Positions 40,338 through 63,630 of a stretch of 64,000 nucleotides of DNA are shown one piece after another (positions within the stretch are counted from its first letter, which is position 1; every line of letters begins with the position of its first letter). The notes beneath the pieces are model-generated. The model saw only the letters and a program-made list of their open reading frames with translations, made no database searches and was not told the origin of the DNA. The position numbers and the translations under genes are program-made. Origin of the DNA: Pseudovirgaria hyperparasitica (lineage: Eukaryota); assembly GCA_010093815.1 (NCBI GenBank), contig ML996579.1. One strand, 5' to 3'.

Positions 40338-42143
40338 TCACGCCTCCTCCACCTGACCCTCCTCCCCACTCCCCCCCCTCTCATCAACCCCCAACCTCCC
40401 CTTCCTCGTCCCCTCGCCCAACCCCAACCGCCGAACGCCCAACATCAACGGCAACGGCACAACCACACACGCCACAACCGCCATAAACACCAACCCCCTC
40501 TTCATACTCCCCTCCGGCTCCCCGTCCGCGCCCTTCAACGCCCCCATAACAACAATAAACACCCCGCCGAGCAACTGGCCCGCACTCCACATAACCACAC
40601 TGCCCACCTCCGGACTCGCCGGCCACGCCACCTCAACCACATACTCCAGACTAACCGGCAACAACGCAAAACTGCTCGCGCCGAGCACCGCACAAACCGC
40701 ATAGGGCGCCGCCAGCCCCCGCGTACCGGGCGCCCATATGAAGGCGAGGAAGCTGGCGGCAACAATGGGCACGAGCACCTTGATAGGCACGAGATGGGTG
40801 TGCAGCCGGTCGAAGAGCGGGGAGAGCAGGGCGGAGACAAGCAGGCCGACGACGATGAGGATGGCGCCTGCGATGCCGGCTTCGTCTTCGGAGAGGCCGT
40901 AGGGGGCGAGGATCTGGACGAGGAGGGAGGAGAGGGCGTTGAAGAGGGCGACGTAGATGGCGAAGGGGAGGAGGATGATGTAGAAGGGTTTGCTGCGGGC
41001 GAGGATGGAGAGGGAGTTGCGGAGAGGGGTTTGCGGGAGGGAGGAGGTTGGGGATGCGGGGGTTGGGGGGCGCGAGGGGAGGAAGAAGGCTGGGAGGGCG
41101 ACGAGGGTGGACTGTGTGTGGTTTTTTTGTTTAGTTTTTGGGTAACTGAGTGGTTGCAGGTGGTAGGCTTACTATGATTGCTGTGTAGAGGACTGTGTCT
41201 GGGACTTTGCTTGCGTCTGTGGCCCAGAAGGGGTTGACCAACTGGCCAATCTGTATAGAGCAAATCAGTATATCAGATCCGCATCTCAAAAACAACACAA
41301 CAACAACAACAATATACATGCAACTTACCGCTCCCCCAAACGGATTAGCAAGACTTGCCAGCGCCGTAGCAGACACCCGCCCCCGATCCGTAAACCACAT
41401 ATCGCTATACCGCGTCGGCGCAGTCAGCACAAACGGCTGCGCAAAGCCAATCAAGATCTGGCCAAACATGACCACTCCAAACCGAGCACTGACACTGCCC
41501 GTAATCCGCACGCCCCCATATCGGATCCAGCTGCCAATGAGCGTCAAAACACTCGCCGATACGATGGACGGCTTCGGCCCGAAATGCAGGACGTATACCA
41601 CGATGCTGTGCAACAACCAGTCAGCTCATGACGTCTGCCAACAAACACACACAGAAGAGATATAAGAAACGAGCAACATACGGCGCAACAACAACAAACG
41701 CAAACAAAAACCCGGTACTCAGCCAATTAATCCCCGTTTCGGAGACGTCGAAAAACTCCGACGCAGTCCTCGATATCGGAGAAAAGGTCAACCACTGCGG
41801 TAGCACGCTGGTCAGCTAGCTCTCCGGATACACATACAAACACACACACACAAACACAAGTACACACATCGCCAGATGGGTACAAACTTACATCCCAGCT
41901 AACAACAATGTTCAGCAAAACCAGCTGGATCAAGCCAAACCAGCGACGCTTATACACGCGATATCCCACCGCCGGCGCAGGCAGAATGGGATCCAGAGTG
42001 GCCTCGCGGTCGAGCTGATAGTGGAGGAGGCCCGCCTCGTTCGTCGTCGAATCCCTCGTCGCGGCGGTCAGAGACGGCGAAGTGACAGTTTCGGTCTTGG
42101 GCATGCCGTACTCGCCCTGTTTGCCGTCGTTGATAGTCTGCAT
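40338..42143 (-). CDS. MFS transporter, FLVCR/SLC49-like
   Basis: YRVYKRRWFGLIQLVLLNIVVSWD, GQILIGFAQPFVLTAPTRYSDMWFTDRGR, LANPFGGA; many TM segments over several exons; start codon tentative. Confidence 0.88.
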
Positions 42144-43469
42144 TCTCACGTAGCCAAGGTTTGTCGCATGCCGGGTCGTGGAATGGACAACGACTTTGAG
42201 CCGGTCGAACATGCAACGAGCCCTGTGGATCGTCTATATAACCGCGAAGCAGGGATCGGATGGAGCGCAGTTATCGTTGTTATCAGCTTTGCAGACAGTC
42301 CGGATACGTCTGGTAGTCCGACCCGAGGTGGTTTCTTGAGTGATTGGCAGTTGATTACTCTCTGTCAGGTCACGGGATTATTTGCTTGAACTATCAGTTG
42401 TCAGTTGCCATAACGGGAGTAGCGTGACTTTATAAACTACAGGCCCGGACTCCCGAGGTTCCCCTGGTAGGTACCTGACACTAGTCTGCTTTAGGAAAAG
42501 TATCATCCGAGGATCCCATCCCCTTTTTCCCACCATTCATTTTCCCCAACCACAGAATAATCATTTCTACAGTGTGTAAGATCATGACATAGCCAGCCAT
42601 TTCAGCCCTTGGATTTTGGGACGTGTCGGTGCTGTGTGCCTCGAGAGTGCCCCCTTACAGCATCGAATCACTCCGTCCATGTCCTGCTCTCAACAGAGTC
42701 GTTGAAGGCTGCCCCAACATCGAACCCACTAACACGCGAGGTTTACGTATTGAAGCGACGGACCAAATGATCTTCTTGGCTGGAATATCTGAAAAAAGTC
42801 AAAATTAAAAAATAAAACAAAGAGACAGTCTGTTATCTGTTTGCATTTATTCTTGCATAGCACTCAAGTCGATCTTATCTTTTCCTTCGCACGCTCATAG
42901 GGGTTCCTTTTTTCAGAGTCAAGATACTTTATTCATCAAGTTATTTTTCTCCTCTTTCTACGTCTTACTCTCGTCATTCGTCTTTCCCTGCTCGACTAAC
43001 TTTCGTCCCGAAGGCTCAAGGTAGGAAGCGAGAAGCTCATCGCATCGCACGGCGCCGAACTTGGAACAGGGGCCCTGGTTCGCAAACGCCCCAACTGGAT
43101 GCTCCAACGAGGTCAAGAGAAAGATAACTGGACCCGTTGCCGATGGAATGTAAAGCTGGATCCTCACCGCACTGGAATAGAGTCTATAGCCTGCCGTTCG
43201 CACTCCTCCCATCCGCAATCGCATCTCGGCTACTAGGCCGGAGTGAAACTCTGAGAGGGCGATGCTGAGTCGCAGCCGGTGTGTTCTCGACACTGTACTT
43301 CTGATCGCAGGTGCGGTGGACCGTGTGGACCTAAGAGCTCGGTATTCGCGTCGGGGGCTTGCGATGAGTGGCGATTGTTGTACCGAGGATACCAATACGA
43401 TCGCGACAGGCATTCGAGTACTGGCGTTCGTATGGCATCGCTCAGCCGGCGCATGATCGACTGTGCATG

Positions 43470-44440: not shown

Positions 44441-45877
44441 CTGTACTCCACCTGTGTGTCTCGAGTGCATATATGAGCGATTCCACACGTTGGCAGACGC
44501 ATCTCGACATTCATCCGAAATCGACGAAACAAATACCACGCCAGAGCTATGATATCCGTCAATGTGCTCAACCACAAAGTCTCCATCGAAACCAAACCGA
44601 GAAAGGCCATCGCCGCATCGTAGACGTGTCCGTACCCTGCTCGCACCCCGTCAGCACAAAGCTATCATCAATACAACACACTCACATCACATCCCATCCC
44701 ATCCCAATCCTCCAAACCCAAAGCCGAGACGCAAAGTACCTACTCCCCATGAAACCCAGCCGATAGGTACCTCGAAGCGTGCGTACCTACCCAACCCAAG
44801 CCAAACGCAACATACCAAACCACACAATCAAGCCTTCCTCACCTGCCATCAAAAAATCCCGTCAAGCCCCGCAAGCATCCCCCTCATCGTAGCTTACATC
44901 TGCAGTGATGCATGTGTTGCACCATATGATAGTCTGCAGTTGAAGAAAGGAGGACGGAAGGAGAGAGAGAGAGGGAAAGAATGAGAAACGCCTAGTCCTG
45001 CTGAAGATACCTACCTCCCCTGAGCGGCCCCTTTAATCCCCCCGTTATTCCCCTCCGCAGACATCCGGGTGCTCGTCGCGGCGGTGGACGCTGTAGGGCA
45101 TAGCTGGTATAGCTGGCATAGCTAGCTGGCATAGATACCTTCTGGGCGCCCACTACCCCCCTATTTTTCCTCTATGTCCCCCCCAACTCAGCCAGCTAAA
45201 ATCCAACTCGCACGCCAGAAAGAAGGGGAGACACCCTGCTAGAGGCCTGCGACTGTAGCTGCCCTGGCGATTTGTGCCCTGAGGGCCTGGCGGGCTGGTG
45301 GTGGTGCACTTCCTGGCTTGGTGCGCCCCGAGACTTCATAACGACGCGAATCTATGTACAGGGCATGATAATTATTCTCTGCGTCGGACACGCAGGGCAT
45401 TTAGACGTAGAGATGGGCTGCTGAATGTTCACTTTGCACCGACGACGGCATGTGTGCTGCTGAGACGTGGGGATGTTTGTACTGCACGATCCACGGCACA
45501 TGGATGGATGAATGTCAGACACGAACGGTGTGATGGATGATTGTGATATTCATCGTGCTCTGCACCTGTCGATGGGCAAGCGAGCATCTATCTGCGAAAA
45601 CAGAACAAGAACAAGAACAAGAACCGGTATGCCAAACACCATATGCCATGCAACCCAACCGCGCAATGCAACAACAACAACAAAACCCAACCACGCAATG
45701 CATAAACCCAAGACAAGACCAACGCTATGCAATCCAAACCGACCGCTATGCAAAACAAGACACCGACGCAAAATATACAAAATGATGCCCTCCCCTCGTC
45801 TACAACCAACCCACAACGGGACAAGTAGACGATTGAACTGTTCCCGGTGAACAGTGTGTATGTCGAATGAAGAAATC

Positions 45878-46136
45878 CAGCGGTATCCTCGGAACGTTTC
45901 GTCTCCTGATTGGATGTGATGGTGGGAGGAGACGAGTGTCTTACTCGATACTTGGATGTGGATGTGAGACTCTATTCAGAGGTACCCTCGGAACACCTCG
46001 TCTCTCGGGATGGTGAGAGACGAGTGTCTTACTCGATACTTGATAGAGAGGGGAATGAACCAGAGGTATCCTCGGAGCGCCTCACTTGACGACGACGATG
46101 ATGATAATGTCAAGTGAGTGTCCTACTCGATGCTTG
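45878..46136. repeat. Array of three imperfect hairpin repeats (candidate structured RNA element)
   Basis: Units 45878-45954, 45977-46042 and 46061-46136 share a 5' arm CAGMGGTAYCCTCGGA and a 3' arm GAGTGTCYTACTCGATRCTTG around self-complementary inner stems. Confidence 0.85.
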
Positions 46137-46308
46137 AATCATGTGTGGCGGCAGGGTGCAGTGGTGAGGTGAGCAGCAGCAGCTCAGGGACAGGGAAGAC
46201 GGCGAGGGGGGAGGGGGGAAGGCAGCAGTGGCAGCAGTGGCAGCAATGCAAGAGACGGACGAGGCCATGGGGAGAGTGGATGAGAGTGCCTCAACTGGGG
46301 ACCACTCC

Positions 46309-47373
46309 TCACCAAAGGCCCGCCTCCTCGAGCTGCTCGAGCTGCTCGTACTCCCCGAAGTCCTCGGGCTGCCAGAACTGCTCGAATGGCGGCATGTAAG
46401 CCCCAAAGTCAGTCCTAGGCTCAGCAGGAGCAGCAGGGAGATAGGCCTGCTCCTGAGCCTGGGTGGGCTCCAACTGCCCATCATCCCCGAAGAGCTGCTC
46501 GACAGCAGCCCCAGAGTCGGGCACCATCTGCCCATCCTGCCCCCATGGCTGCTGGTCAGCCCCAAAGCCGGGCTGAGGCCCAGGAGCAGCATAGTAATAG
46601 GGCTGCTCCTGGCCCTGGAACTGGCCCTCTAGAGCCGCCGTGGGCCCAAACTGCGGTCCTGCCGCCGGCACAGTCGCAAACTGGCCATCCCAAGCAGGGT
46701 CGTCACCCATACTTGGCTCCTCCATCTGCGGCAGATAGAGGTTTCCCCTCCAGCCTTGCTGCTGGACGAACGCCTCAGGAGGAGGAGTGATGGGAGCCTG
46801 GGGGGCACCCATGGGAAGAGCCCAGGGAGCCGGCCCTGGGAGCTCAGGAAGCGGCTGCTGCACGACTGGCAGCTGCTCCTGTGGCGGCGTGCTGGGCTCC
46901 GTCTGCCGCGCCTGTTTGCGTGCAGCAGCACGCTCTTTGGCAGACGGCTTCTTCTTCTTCTCGCCGTCTGCATTTGCCCTCGCCCTCGGCTTGGGCACGA
47001 TGTCATGCGCCCGGACATGATGTTTGCCCCGGGCATGGTCATCCTTGAAAGTTTCCTGGCAACCAGGCTGCTTGCAAGGGAGGAGCTCGCCGCCATGCTT
47101 GCTCCGCATGTGTGCTTTCACATGCTCCTTCTGTCTCAGGGACAGGCTGCACACATGGCATTTGTATCCCCTGGCGTTCAGGTGAGCACTCATGTAGTGC
47201 TTCCCCTCGCCCTTGATACCACAGGCCTTGCCAGACCTGTAGTTGCAGCCTGGCCACGAGCACACCCAGGGCTTCGGGTGTGTCGGCTGGGACTCGTCCA
47301 GCCTGCACCAGGTGCCTCGCACCTCTGCTGTGTACGCCAGCTTTGGAGCGAGCTCCTCCACTGGGGCAGCCAT
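46309..47373 (-). CDS. C2H2 zinc-finger protein (3 fingers, basic NLS, Q/P/acidic tail)
   Basis: CSWPGC..HYMSAH, CHVC..HMRSKH and CKQPGC..HHVRAH; KKKKPSAKER; intronless; first ATG at 47373 (frame open to 47526). Confidence 0.85.
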   Translation of the reverse strand: MAAPVEELAPKLAYTAEVRGTWCRLDESQPTHPKPWVCSWPGCNYRSGKACGIKGEGKHYMSAHLNARGYKCHVCSLSLRQKEHVKAHMRSKHGGELLPCKQPGCQETFKDDHARGKHHVRAHDIVPKPRARANADGEKKKKPSAKERAAARKQARQTEPSTPPQEQLPVVQQPLPELPGPAPWALPMGAPQAPITPPPEAFVQQQGWRGNLYLPQMEEPSMGDDPAWDGQFATVPAAGPQFGPTAALEGQFQGQEQPYYYAAPGPQPGFGADQQPWGQDGQMVPDSGAAVEQLFGDDGQLEPTQAQEQAYLPAAPAEPRTDFGAYMPPFEQFWQPEDFGEYEQLEQLEEAGLW

Positions 47374-49847
47374 GCCTGAAAACGAGGGCTGGGATGCAGC
47401 GACACTCGTTTCCCGGCGACTGGATGGTGCTAGAGTGGTGTTGCTAAGCACCGGAAACACGCTCCTTGGAGGGGGGAGGGGGGGGGGGCGTGCAGGTGCT
47501 GTAACAACTTGTCGCGACAGGCTCACTAGCTGCTGTGAGGTCGCAAGTTGGCTTGGTCTCTACAGGTTAAACCTGGTAGATCCCGAGAGGAGGAGGGGGG
47601 GGGAGGAGGAGTCCTGTTTCGGGTGCCCGCTGGATGCTTGACACTAGGACAAGGGAGAGGATACACCTAAAGTGAGGTGTGAAAGAAGAGTAGACTGCTT
47701 CGTGGGCTGTTGGACAGACAGGAAACTGTCTGTTGCACTTGAAGCTATTTGTAGAAAGATGTTCACTGAAAGTTGTTGAAGATTTAGATGGAAGGGAGGA
47801 AACAGCACCACACGCACCCTTTTATGAGGACGACCGGAACGTCCTGGAAGGCCAGTACGATCAGGACGACCACCGTAAACAGGACAGTCACCACAACTTG
47901 GGACAATTCCCCCTGAAATCCAGTCTGTGACCACAGAGTACCACGGTCCTCCATCGTCAAATACCCAACACGACGTCGGGGCAACTGAACCTCTACATTT
48001 GCGATATGGATGTGCCAAAGGGACGCAGAGTCCGGATCACATGGAATTTGGATCATTAGAAAGGGAAGAAAAGCGGCATCAAGCTCATCCCTTTTGCAAA
48101 CCGAGACCTCGAGAGTTGCATACTCAATTCCAGTTGATGCATACTGAGCAGCTTCGTGAGTGTCCTGGGGGGAGTTGCGCTAACAAACCAGTCACCAAAA
48201 TCAGGGGCTTAGCAGGACCCTACAACTCTGGTACTGCAAATTTTTCTTCAAGCTACCGGCATTTGGTCGAATCCAATACTACAATGTTCGGTATTGGGAA
48301 TGTAATAGCGTTTGCTATAGGGACAGAGATGGACGTCGACTATCCGCACGCATCCTTCATGCCAGCATATCGACGCAAATCGAGTAGGAGAAAGGATATG
48401 ATAGCAGCCGCGATGGGCATAGCTCAGGGGCTCGACCACATCAGAATGGGCTTTACGGGTTCGTATTGAAAAACGTCCACACAGGGGGGCATGCAGCAGG
48501 CAAGCAGAGTTCTCAGGCTGTACTATTGCACGTATGGGTGTGTTAGGGCAGAACGGGGGCATGGGCAGTGCTTGCGGTGTGTGGATTCGTGATGTGGTAG
48601 CTGGGCAGGAGAAGACTACACGTCTCGAAGGAACCACCAAGCACACACATCAAGAGGCTGCTCAATCTGATGATACGGTCCTCAAGCATCTACAGACTAT
48701 ACACTGTAGCCGCGCAGTGTCTTCAAGAAGCATCGCGTTGATGGCAGAATCTCGCTGCTTGAGAGCCCCCAAGTAGCAGCCTGGCCGACTGGACGCCCCT
48801 ACACCAGACCGGGACTCCGCTAGCAGCCGCATCGATTCTGCACTGTCTACATACAACATCATCTTTCCAAACACCCTCTCCAGATCCCCAACCATGACTG
48901 AATCGAACGTCATAGAATACTTGCTAATGGGTTCTGATGTGGCATATATAGGTCTTCCAACACCCGCAACCCCTGAACGAGCGAGTCGCGCCACGCAAAC
49001 ACGAGCCTCGCTCCTCAGCCATGAATCAACTGCACACCGTTCCAATCCTGCCGCAACCACAGAGCTGCGCTGTATAGGAGCTGTCAGTCATTCAACTGTA
49101 GAAGCGCTCTCTAATATAATAAAGAGAGAGCAGCCAACTTGTCGAGGCATGGTTCTGCCGATCGCGCGAGCTGGTCACAGACAACAGACCGTCCCTCCAG
49201 CAGCTCCACGAGGTCTATCCCCGACATAACCAGCAAGACGACAATGCGACTGAACTCGCGAATCTCTCACAACAAACCCGAGTCCCGAGAAACCCTCACC
49301 GAGTCCCGAGCGCGTATCAACTCCTCCGAACTCCCCTCGGCGCATTTCTCAAACGCGCGCATATTGTCCGACTCCTCCGACCGCCCGCAAGCCCGTGCAA
49401 CTGTCAATTAAAATATCCGAAACACAAAGAATGAGGCGTCAGGGTTCTGTCAGGGTTGCTGCAGAAGACCCTCTCTACCCTGGAGCGCGTGGTGCGCGGG
49501 ATGGTGCTATAGATAGACAAGACTAGACGAGGCAGACATGGGACATACGAGACTGGGCAGGGCAGAAGACGCGACAAACAACGAGAACGGGGATACAAGC
49601 ATTCAGAGCGTGCTCGATAGCGCTCTCAAGAAAACACGGAATATACAAGCAGCGCCAATGCTGTACAGAGCGCAGCATGAAATATGTATTTATATAATAA
49701 AGCCGTCCATAAACTATATACCTGTTTGTCCCAGCATCATGATAATCTTGATATGTCCAGCTATAATACAATCCCATCAAGATCTGCCCTCCAAAAAACC
49801 AAACCCGAATCCCACCTTTCTCACCCCTCATCTCCACGACAATTCGT

Positions 49848-62473: not shown

Positions 62474-63630
62474 CTACGCCCCCTTCGCGTCTGGCGGACA
62501 CAGCAGCTCCCTCCCATGCTTCTCATTCCACGCCTCCGTGCTCTCGAGCATAGCCCACCGCACGCCATCCAGCCCACACGGCAACACGACCGAACACGCC
62601 AGAATCGGAGGCGCATGATACCTGCCCCCGCGCAACTCATTCTGCATCGCCGCAACCTCACCCTGCACCTCCTCCATCCGCGCCCTCACGCGCTGCACAT
62701 CCCTCTCCCTCTCCCTTTCCCTCCCCTCCACCCCCCTATTCTTCCTCCCCTCCTCCCCCCACTCCCCCCCAACAATCCGATCAACCTTACTCAACACCAG
62801 CGTAAACGCCAACCCACCCCTCACCAGAATCTCCAAAACCCGCCTATCCCCGCCCTGCACCCCGACCTCCGCATCAATCAACAGGAACCGCATGCCCAAC
62901 TGCTCGCGCCGCTGCAGATATTTCACAATCTCCACGCCCCACTCCGCGCGACTGCCGTAGCCGTAGCCGGGCATGTCGACGAGGACCATGGCGCGTTTGC
63001 CGAACCAGGTGCGTTGGCGGGCGTTGTATGCTGCGCCGCCGAGGCCGATGGCGTTCATGCTGGTTGTGTGGCCGGGGGTTTTGCTGACGCTGGCGGGGCG
63101 GCGCGGGTTGGGCGTTGTTGGGGGGATGTGCAGGAGGGCGTTGAGGAGGGAGGATTTGCCGGCGTTGGAGCGGCCGAGGAGGGTTGTCTCGGGGAGTTCG
63201 GAGACGGGGAAGTGGGCGAATTTGGAGAGGGGGGAGAGGCGGGNNNNNNNNNNNNNNNNNNNNNNNNNNNNNNNNNNNNNNNNNNNNNNNNNNNNNNNNN
63301 GTTTGCGTAGTGGAGGGCGGTTGGGCTTGGGGGGTTGTTGTGTGGGTAGAGGCCTAGGGCGGATTGGGGGAGTGCTGGGTTGGAGGGGGGTTTGGGGATG
63401 GGTTTGGTTGCTGTTGTTGTTGTTGTGGTTTTGGATCTTGTGGATTGTGGGCGGGAGGGTTGTGTCGAGGGGGTGTGGTGGTCGAGGTGGAGGTGTCGGG
63501 TTGGTGGTGATGAGGACGACGAGATGCTCAGGGAGGACGAAGTGGTGGTGAATGGCCACGAGTGCGCCGACGGTCGAGGATTGCTGTGGAGTGCGACATC
63601 GAGGAAGCGCGTCGCCGCACGATGCGACAT
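62474..63630 (-). CDS. EngB/YihA family GTP-binding protein, probably mitochondrial; spans the assembly gap
   Basis: G1 GRSNAGKS, G2 SKTPGHT, G3 DMPGYG and G4 SKVD; presequence-like MSHRAATRFL upstream of the gap. Confidence 0.85.
63244..63300. other. Assembly gap (57 N)
   Basis: Run of N. Confidence 1.

Follow-up and report, generated by a model that had tools for sequence, protein, structure and literature searches.

The hairpin array downstream of a C2H2 zinc-finger gene

In a 64,000-nucleotide (nt) stretch of DNA from Pseudovirgaria hyperparasitica (GenBank assembly GCA_010093815.1, contig ML996579.1; the whole stretch is called the window below), we analysed an array of three tandem hairpin units that lies past the stop codon of a C2H2 zinc-finger gene. 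The gene is read from the - strand, and the positions of the units are given in + strand coordinates, as follows.

45878-45954, + coordinates: unit 1, covariance model E 1.6e-27; 5' block 45878-45898; inner stem 45899-45907/45927-45935, 9 base pairs (bp); loop of 19 nt; 3' block GAGTGTCTTACTCGATACTTG at 45934-45954
45977-46042, + coordinates: unit 2, covariance model E 5.1e-24; 5' block 45977-45996; inner stem 45997-46006/46015-46024, 10 bp; loop of 8 nt; 3' block 46022-46042
46061-46136, + coordinates: unit 3, covariance model E 1.7e-27; 5' block 46061-46080; inner stem 46081-46090/46109-46118, 10 bp of another sequence; loop of 18 nt, (GAC)n(GAT)n-like; 3' block 46116-46136
46309-47559, - strand: open reading frame (ORF) of the C2H2 zinc-finger protein, 46309-47373 when read from the first Met (354 aa); stop codon at 46309-46311

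The three units are real, and their number in the window is exactly three. A covariance model built from the units was run over both strands of the window with the filters off, and matches were kept up to E = 10. It returned 14 matches, and only the three units were significant (E 1.6e-27 to 5.1e-24), the E-values of the other 11 being at least 1.9. The first-pass annotation, which had been made from the letters of the DNA, had described three tandem units behind the C2H2 stop codon, and the search confirmed both their number and their place, 45878-45954, 45977-46042 and 46061-46136, 171-431 nt past the stop codon when counted from its first base. Simple pattern searches of the window gave the same picture. 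The 21-mer GAGTGTCTTACTCGATACTTG had two exact matches and one with 2 mismatches, all of them in the units, where none was expected (100 shuffles). The pattern of the 5' block, with at most 3 mismatches allowed, was found 4 times against 0.13 expected; the three units matched with 1 mismatch each, and the fourth match (43380-43396, - strand) had 3. On the + strand all three units start with CAG and end with CTTG. The 3' block is exactly the same in units 1 and 2 and carries 2 substitutions in unit 3, and the first two units have an identical segment of 26 nt in common at their 3' side.

The stretch is present in 4 sequencing runs of one organism, coming from 2 studies, and none of the four is recorded as RNA. 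A contig of 266 nt from X4, a run of the second study, spans 45887-46152 with 0 differences, so the sequence of the array was unchanged in the second sample. Two of the runs, X3 and X4, were judged to be low-coverage DNA because their depth was even across coding and intergenic parts and they gave a single long contig (~25 kb), and nothing on expression was drawn from them.

Conservation inside the repeat period of about 90 nt was strongly uneven. The 3' block (21 nt) was alike between units in 54/60 cells (90%) and the 5' block (~20 nt) in 52/66 cells (79%); each arm of the inner stem was alike in 14 of 27 cells, and the spacers, compared without gaps, in 10/36. Counted by position, the stems changed at 5-6 of 9-10 positions and the neighbouring blocks of 20-22 nt at only 2-4. 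When the four spacer stretches were aligned locally with gaps, none of the 6 pairs did better than its own 1000 shuffles (p 0.12-0.98), and the earlier description of the spacers as unrelated therefore stands. Part of the variable sequence is of low complexity and prone to slippage, namely the (GAC)n(GAT)n loop of unit 3 and the GGATGT repeats of spacer 1. Read on the - strand, the consensus is CAAGUAUCGAGUARGACAC 5' of the hairpin and YUCCGAGGRUACCNCUG 3' of it. The solid object at this locus is a 5' block, a hairpin and a 3' block, and the blocks are conserved as sequence but not demonstrably as a helix.

Pairing is kept in the inner stems while their sequence changes

The inner stems of units 1, 2 and 3 are perfect over 9, 10 and 10 bp, respectively. 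It was found that the stem of unit 3 differs from that of unit 2 at 5 of 10 positions, every one of them compensated, and that the two stems agree in length (10 bp), in position and in their first three pairs. Two further double changes separate the stems of units 1 and 2. The swap of the inner stem in unit 3 with its pairing intact, noticed at first pass, was thus borne out: in the complete hairpin as drawn there, both partners had changed in 7/24 pairs (6 of the inner stem, 1 at the base), a number that was reached by 1/500 column shuffles. Over the 9 aligned pairs of the inner stem, 27/27 cells were paired and 6 pairs were changed on both sides; in a control in which the partners were slid by 1-3 columns, pairing went down to 33-44%. 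Additionally, when the entire 311-nt region was treated as one ensemble, the inner stems had a pair probability of 0.97-1.00 on both strands, except for unit 1 on the + strand, where it was 0.10. Since pairing was kept while the sequence of the stem changed, these hairpins point to more than plain duplication. The first-pass proposal of selection on structure rather than simple duplication holds in this respect for the inner stem.

We also examined how common such hairpins are in the window. Perfect inverted repeats of at least 9 bp with loops of 4-25 nt occurred at 9 real loci, whereas 20 shuffles had 3.2 on average (range 0-6), and the units account for 3 of the 9. The segment 45899-46971 contains six of the 9, and three of these six belong to the C2H2 coding sequence. 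The same scan gave one artefactual palindrome in a run of N at ~63254-63300, which is either masked sequence or a gap. Two related strong hairpins of the C2H2 coding sequence (- strand, 46414-46463 and 46570-46622; CAGGAGCAGC ... GCTGCTCCTG) arise because a repeated peptide, Q-E-Q ... A-A-P, uses mutually reverse-complementary codons, and a third coding hairpin, perfect over 9 bp, is located at 46940-46971. Another small perfect hairpin adjoins unit 1 at 45834-45857; its 7-bp stem (AACTGTTC / GAACAGT) encloses a loop of 5 nt, and its sequence is unrelated to the units.

The lower stem

Below the inner stem, the first-pass annotation had drawn an outer stem (GGTATC/GATACT), an internal loop (CTC/TACTC) and bulges. 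These pairs can indeed be drawn, and over the full hairpin 70/72 cells pair on the + strand and 62/72 on the - strand; support for the lower stem as a helix, however, does not go beyond chance, because on either strand the two blocks were no more complementary than shuffles. The energy of the duplex between the 5' and the 3' block, compared with 2000 shuffles of the 3' block, gave z of +0.17, +0.30 and -0.57 on the + strand and -0.70, -0.61 and +1.63 on the - strand. The outer stem was also rarely formed in the ensemble: in the partition function of the 311-nt region its probability was 0.00, 0.00 and 0.25 on the + strand and 0.00 on the - strand. When single units were folded alone, the outer helix on the - strand reached 0.82, 0.77 and 0.06, and the drawn structure of single units was 3.4-10.8 kcal/mol worse than the fold of minimum free energy.

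Nearest-neighbour energies are blind to non-canonical loop motifs, so these values leave room for a structured, purine-rich loop that may be present on the - strand, where GAGUA faces GAG. The consensus of the loop E or sarcin-ricin bulged-G motif is AGUA opposite GAA between Watson-Crick helices. In all three units AGUA stands opposite GAG on the - strand, so that the third position departs from GAA; the likeness to loop E seen at first pass is partial, and support for the helix that would frame the motif does not exceed chance.

Strand preference

Both strands of the 311-nt region were folded. On the - strand the fold was modestly unusual (z -2.30; 2/100 shuffles fold as well), and on the + strand it was ordinary (z -0.79; 19/100 shuffles). 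Folded unit by unit, the - strand gave z of -1.87, -3.23 and -1.85. The first-pass annotation had left the strand ambiguous and had noted that most substitutions read as wobbles on the + strand. As a count this is correct: the drawn pairs contain 7 one-sided changes, all transitions, of which 5 stay G-U on the + strand and 2 on the - strand, although a division of 5:2 falls short of significance and would say nothing should the lower helix not exist. It should also be noted that the hairpin was drawn on the + strand, which biases the count of pairs toward it. From the context described below, we weakly prefer the - strand.

Genomic context of the array

The following features flank the array in the direction of the C2H2 message.

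45770-45783, - strand: UUUUGUAUAUUUUG, first UGUAUA / AU-rich stretch past the C2H2 stop codon, a candidate poly(A) efficiency element
45648-45752, - strand: five UGCAU pentamers in 105 nt, 126-230 nt beyond unit 1
40338-42233, - strand: MFS transporter, the next gene on the strand, which starts ~3.6 kb past the array

The window is gene-dense and encodes, among others, a DNA ligase, MCM5 and a GCFC/G-patch protein. In a search among proteins of 822-2345 aa, the best fungal matches of the MCM5 fragment were 83% identical and came from the genera Didymosphaeria, Seirophora and Penicillium, which assigns the window to the ascomycete subphylum Pezizomycotina and to no narrower group. The array itself is contained in an intergenic gap of 4 kb between the C2H2 and the MFS gene, and with the MFS start ~3.6 kb further on it is outside the MFS coding region.

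The C2H2 protein had a single zf-C2H2 match in Pfam (E 0.0094), whose 16.8 bits are below the curated cut-off of 25.2. Compared with 1.84 billion representative proteins, it gave 610 matches at E <=0.001 and one at <=1e-30, the latter a fragment of 133 aa whose sequence is that of residues 222-354 (100% identity). A further 149 listed matches concern the N-terminal zinc-finger part, mostly residues 20-165, at 26-41% identity. In a separate search for homologous proteins with the C2H2 frame, no match at E <=0.001 was found among 8000 candidates. Judged by these comparisons, the gene is probably specific to its lineage and the transcription factor young or fast-evolving, and for this reason orthologous untranslated regions (UTRs) may be few.

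Over the first 505-530 nt past the C2H2 stop codon, a distance that takes in the whole array, the - strand is free of UGUA, UGUAUA, AAUAAA and AU-rich stretches. If the messenger RNA (mRNA) ended with the help of the UGUAUA / AU-rich stretch at 45770-45783, the array would be placed inside its 3'UTR. The UGCAU cluster follows further downstream. Five sites within 150 nt were reached by 0/200 shuffles; the sites are set in repeated UUGCAU(A/U)GCG strings within a G/U-rich tract, and an extra one is found at 46246. Whi3, an RNA-binding protein of fungi, binds preferentially to UGCAU (PMC13537349, PMC3875557). The cluster may belong to the same long regulatory 3'UTR.

Some other repeats were noticed in this neighbourhood. 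A 9-nt sequence, GGCATAGCT, is repeated in tandem in 3 copies at 45097-45134, where it overlaps a 13-nt repeat, and the core GCTATGC is common to this repeat and to the cluster at 45663-45751. Across the window GCWATGC was not enriched (23 found, 19.4 expected). Just past the UGCAU cluster, an (AGAACA)3.8 microsatellite occupies 45602-45624 of the + strand and reads as (UGUUCU)n / UCUUG repeats on the - strand; we take its UCUUG to resemble the site of yeast Nab3.

Searches for relatives and for membership in known families

Rfam 15, applied to the whole window at gathering thresholds, gave 0 matches. At E <=10 over 45500-46500 there was none in the array, and 3 weak matches to microRNA (miRNA) models (E 7.7-8.9) were placed at 46259-46470. 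That the units had not been recognised as a known RNA family at first pass is in agreement with this result. A scan for genes of transfer RNA gave 0 hits. In metagenomes, the pattern CCTCGGA-N(20-50)-GTGTCYTACTCGAT was found at 13 loci, about the number expected by chance. All 13 lacked tandem copies and an inner stem like that of the units, and neither GGTAYC nor RCTTG flanked any of them. Searches with the 21-mer, two of its positions being degenerate, gave 0 matches in viral contigs and 0 in contigs of prokaryote genomes, and four 16-mers of the array, on both strands and in DNA as well as RNA letters, had no match in a full-text literature search.

Several known structures were then compared with the units, some of them by inspection only. 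In a kink-turn, tandem sheared G.A pairs adjoin a bulge of three nucleotides on its 3' side; by inspection, no GA/GA arrangement beside a 3-nt bulge was seen in either orientation on either strand. Small nucleolar RNAs (snoRNAs) either have C (RUGAUGA) and D (CUGA) boxes at their ends or carry, behind their hairpins, an H (ANANNA) and an ACA box. Strings like these boxes were confined to the loops of units 1 and 3, which are variable, and their order was wrong; inspection gave no ANANNA or ACA at the right distance after the hairpins, and no Rfam snoRNA model matched. The array does not read as coding sequence, since there are stop codons in all frames. Intron-like signals (GUAAGA on the - strand, GUAUCC on the + strand), motifs of the Nrd1/Nab3 type and H/ACA pockets were dropped by inspection only. 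Miniature inverted-repeat transposable elements (MITEs) have terminal inverted repeats between target-site duplications; by inspection, the flanks of the units are not direct repeats and are partly complementary to each other. By plant-type criteria, the small-RNA/star duplex of a miRNA should be paired over most of its length and should contain few mismatches and hardly any asymmetry. In the units, the conserved 3' arm has 16/21 nt paired and faces a 3x5 internal loop and bulges, and the duplex of the arms is at shuffle level. The 3' end of Helitron1 requires a distance of 10-12 nt between the hairpin and CTRR, and this distance is 17 nt in each unit. The array could be assigned to none of the described families that were tested.

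Discussion

The uneven conservation of the units and their compensated stems are most simply explained by a constraint on a transcribed element. The reading that we favour (probability roughly 0.35) places the array on the - strand, as a threefold docking element for protein within the C2H2 mRNA, whose 3'UTR would be long; transcription of this strand, inclusion in the UTR and binding are all parts that we infer. The three units would be copies of a composite RNA element in a C2H2 3'UTR of ~550-670 nt. In each copy a short stable hairpin, in which pairing alone would matter, would be held between two blocks constrained in sequence, and an RNA-binding factor could recognise the blocks by their sequence or by a non-canonical fold that they adopt. 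Three such copies would make a multivalent docking platform that sets the stability, translation or location of the message of the transcription factor, and the UGCAU cluster further downstream would possibly act together with it. For this reading count the uneven conservation, the compensated stems, the fold of the - strand, the position of the array on the coding strand of the nearest gene, the late poly(A)-like signals and the UGCAU cluster. A 3'UTR element had been one of three alternatives of the first-pass annotation, and from the context it is the best reading of them. Another of the three, autoregulation by the zinc-finger protein, would depend on an analogy with loop E that is only partial.

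Several points weigh on the other side. The comparison covers three paralogous copies from one genome, and their alikeness could be due to short-tract gene conversion rather than selection. A 3'UTR of at least 550 nt is long for a fungus. The full-length hairpin, if real, pairs worse on the - strand than on the + strand, and 5/7 of the one-sided changes turn into A.C mismatches there. Finally, apart from the identical 133-aa fragment, the C2H2 protein had no close relative among the representative proteins, so that the locus would be young or fast-evolving and an elaborate regulatory element is less expected.

A second explanation, possible but somewhat doubtful, is a neutral, young, minisatellite-like tandem repeat with a chance palindrome, whose spacers and loops were scrambled by slippage and whose blocks are alike through recency or micro-conversion. 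As part of it, intrastrand template switching could have copied one arm of the stem from the other and mimicked compensatory change without any selection on RNA. The low-complexity, slippage-prone loops and spacers agree with this, as does a lower stem no better than chance; the one-sided changes, 7/7 transitions with a 5:2 split between strands, are what mutation bias alone would give, and the identical 26-nt segment of units 1 and 2 is suggestive of conversion. The neighbourhood is moreover unusually rich in hairpins, with 6/9 of the perfect inverted repeats of the window in 45899-46971, the host gene is probably lineage-specific, and no relative was found in the metagenome, viral and prokaryote collections. 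What speaks against neutrality is the stem itself. The agreement of units 2 and 3 in stem length, stem position and the first three pairs is expected under selection for a hairpin and would be a coincidence if a block had been replaced. The concentration of changes in the stem, with few in the adjoining blocks, also counts against a neutral repeat, as do the two further double changes between units 1 and 2. Template switching should have perfected the lower arms too, yet the same asymmetry is seen in all three units. If the array nevertheless proved to be a neutral repeat, it would be a useful caution: "covariation" among the paralogous units of a single locus can have its origin in DNA, and lower stems that can be drawn may not exceed chance.

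Reading the other strand, the array would be an RNA antisense to the C2H2 mRNA with three long imperfect hairpins, either a structured non-coding RNA or a diced cluster of microRNA-like RNAs (milRNAs); we regard this as unlikely. Variable loops and upper stems next to a conserved 21-nt arm resemble paralogous miRNA precursors, and the + strand has the larger number of drawn pairs (70/72 against 62/72) and the five changes that stay G-U. The 3' arm is somewhat better conserved than the 5' arm (54/60 against 52/66), like a mature sequence compared with its star. The count of pairs is, as said, biased by a drawing made on the + strand, and neither the 5:2 split nor the difference between the arms is significant. 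In addition, the arms are complementary only at shuffle level (z +0.17, +0.30, -0.57), the outer stems hardly occur in the ensemble (0.00, 0.00 and 0.25), and the fold of the whole region is ordinary on this strand (z -0.79). The tandem hairpins of ~70-90 nt, the conserved arm of ~21 nt, the variable loops and the compensated upper stems are features of clustered miRNA and fungal milRNA precursors, but here the putative duplex is poorly paired, with 16/21 nt of the supposed mature arm in pairs opposite the 3x5 loop and bulges. The milRNA cluster suggested at first pass, with the ~21-nt 3' arm as its product, is weakened by this pairing. Moreover, a full-text literature search yielded no polycistronic fungal milRNA, the word being met in reviews on plants or vectors. 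A more specific form, and one to which we give still less weight, would be a polycistronic small-RNA or structured antisense locus on the + strand. Its three 3' arms would each match a site in the 3'UTR of the convergently read C2H2 mRNA with perfect complementarity, and it would be a built-in antisense regulator, in cis, of this transcription factor. If true, a small-RNA locus on the + strand would be, as far as the literature search shows, the first clustered locus of the milRNA type in a fungus.

It is improbable that the units are ends of mobile elements, that is, MITE-like copies or tandem Helitron-type 3' termini at which a transposase would read the flanks and the hairpin on single-stranded DNA. 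The Helitron 3' end is described as a short hairpin 10-12 nt before a CTRR terminus, and conserved flanks around a hairpin of variable sequence do look like rolling-circle transposon ends (PMC5148889). In the units a structure-conserved, variable hairpin likewise stands between conserved flanks, on the - strand the hairpin of every unit is followed by a terminal CTGG or CTGA, and unrelated spacers would fit independent insertions. The spacing of 17 nt nevertheless differs from the 10-12 nt of Helitrons (PMC5148889), target-site duplications were not seen, and the flanks are by inspection partly inverted-complementary. Three insertions in the same orientation at a spacing of 18-22 nt would also be improbable, the other ~63.7 kb of the window hold no further copy, and Pfam, applied to 13 of the 28 ORFs of at least 250 aa in the window, gave no Rep/helicase or transposase domain.

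Least probable of all are sites in double-stranded DNA, bound through their blocks by a transcription factor or another protein as a threefold module for the C2H2 or the MFS gene with incidental palindromes, because this would leave the 7 compensated stem pairs unexplained, factor sites are usually shorter than blocks of ~20 and 21 nt, and the array is downstream of the C2H2 gene and ~3.6 kb from the MFS start. In favour of such sites, it is the sequence of the blocks that is demonstrably conserved rather than a helix, the 4-kb gap that holds them is upstream of the MFS gene, and the 5' block has a CGG triplet of the kind bound by zinc-cluster factors.

The docking element in the C2H2 3'UTR can be compared with some known systems. 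The 3'UTR hairpin of S. cerevisiae RPS28B, reportedly a site of autoregulation by Rps28/Edc3, and the elements of ASH1, which is said to carry several localisation elements per message, are likewise short 3'UTR helices that present sequence-specific unpaired or non-canonical nucleotides, and control of decay, translation or localisation is the outcome expected there. The array differs from them in its three near-identical tandem modules and in the conserved blocks of ~20 nt on both sides; it has no sequence likeness to them, and its host belongs to the Pezizomycotina. With the U1A polyadenylation-inhibition element and with the TFIIIA-5S rRNA loop E, which are cases of autoregulatory or zinc-finger recognition of RNA, the likeness consists in repeated internal-loop motifs. 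Protein binding is a property of those systems, whereas here support for the flanking helix does not exceed chance and RNA binding by the C2H2 protein is hypothetical.

The five UGCAU in 105 nt of the mRNA strand recall the mRNAs bound by Whi3. CLN3 of Ashbya gossypii carries five clustered UGCAU and is bound by Whi3 (PMC13537349), and a likeness of this kind suggests a multivalent protein-RNA platform. The UGCAU sites are, in contrast to the blocks, outside the three units, and the biology of Whi3 is established in Saccharomycetes, another lineage. A reading on a par with that of the small-RNA locus on the + strand is that the three block-hairpin-block modules and the UGCAU cluster may together represent a new fungal RNA family, a multivalent scaffold for RNA-binding proteins of the condensate type.

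As an RNA element new to fungi the array is, in our view, a credible candidate, resting on three paralogous copies in one genome. Its threefold design, with the blocks fixed in sequence and the hairpin fixed in pairing only, makes it directly testable. To our knowledge, very few 3'UTR structures or protein-docking arrays have been described in filamentous ascomycetes. If the units are functional RNA, they would represent an undescribed class of elements in these fungi, carried on the message of a lineage-specific transcription factor.

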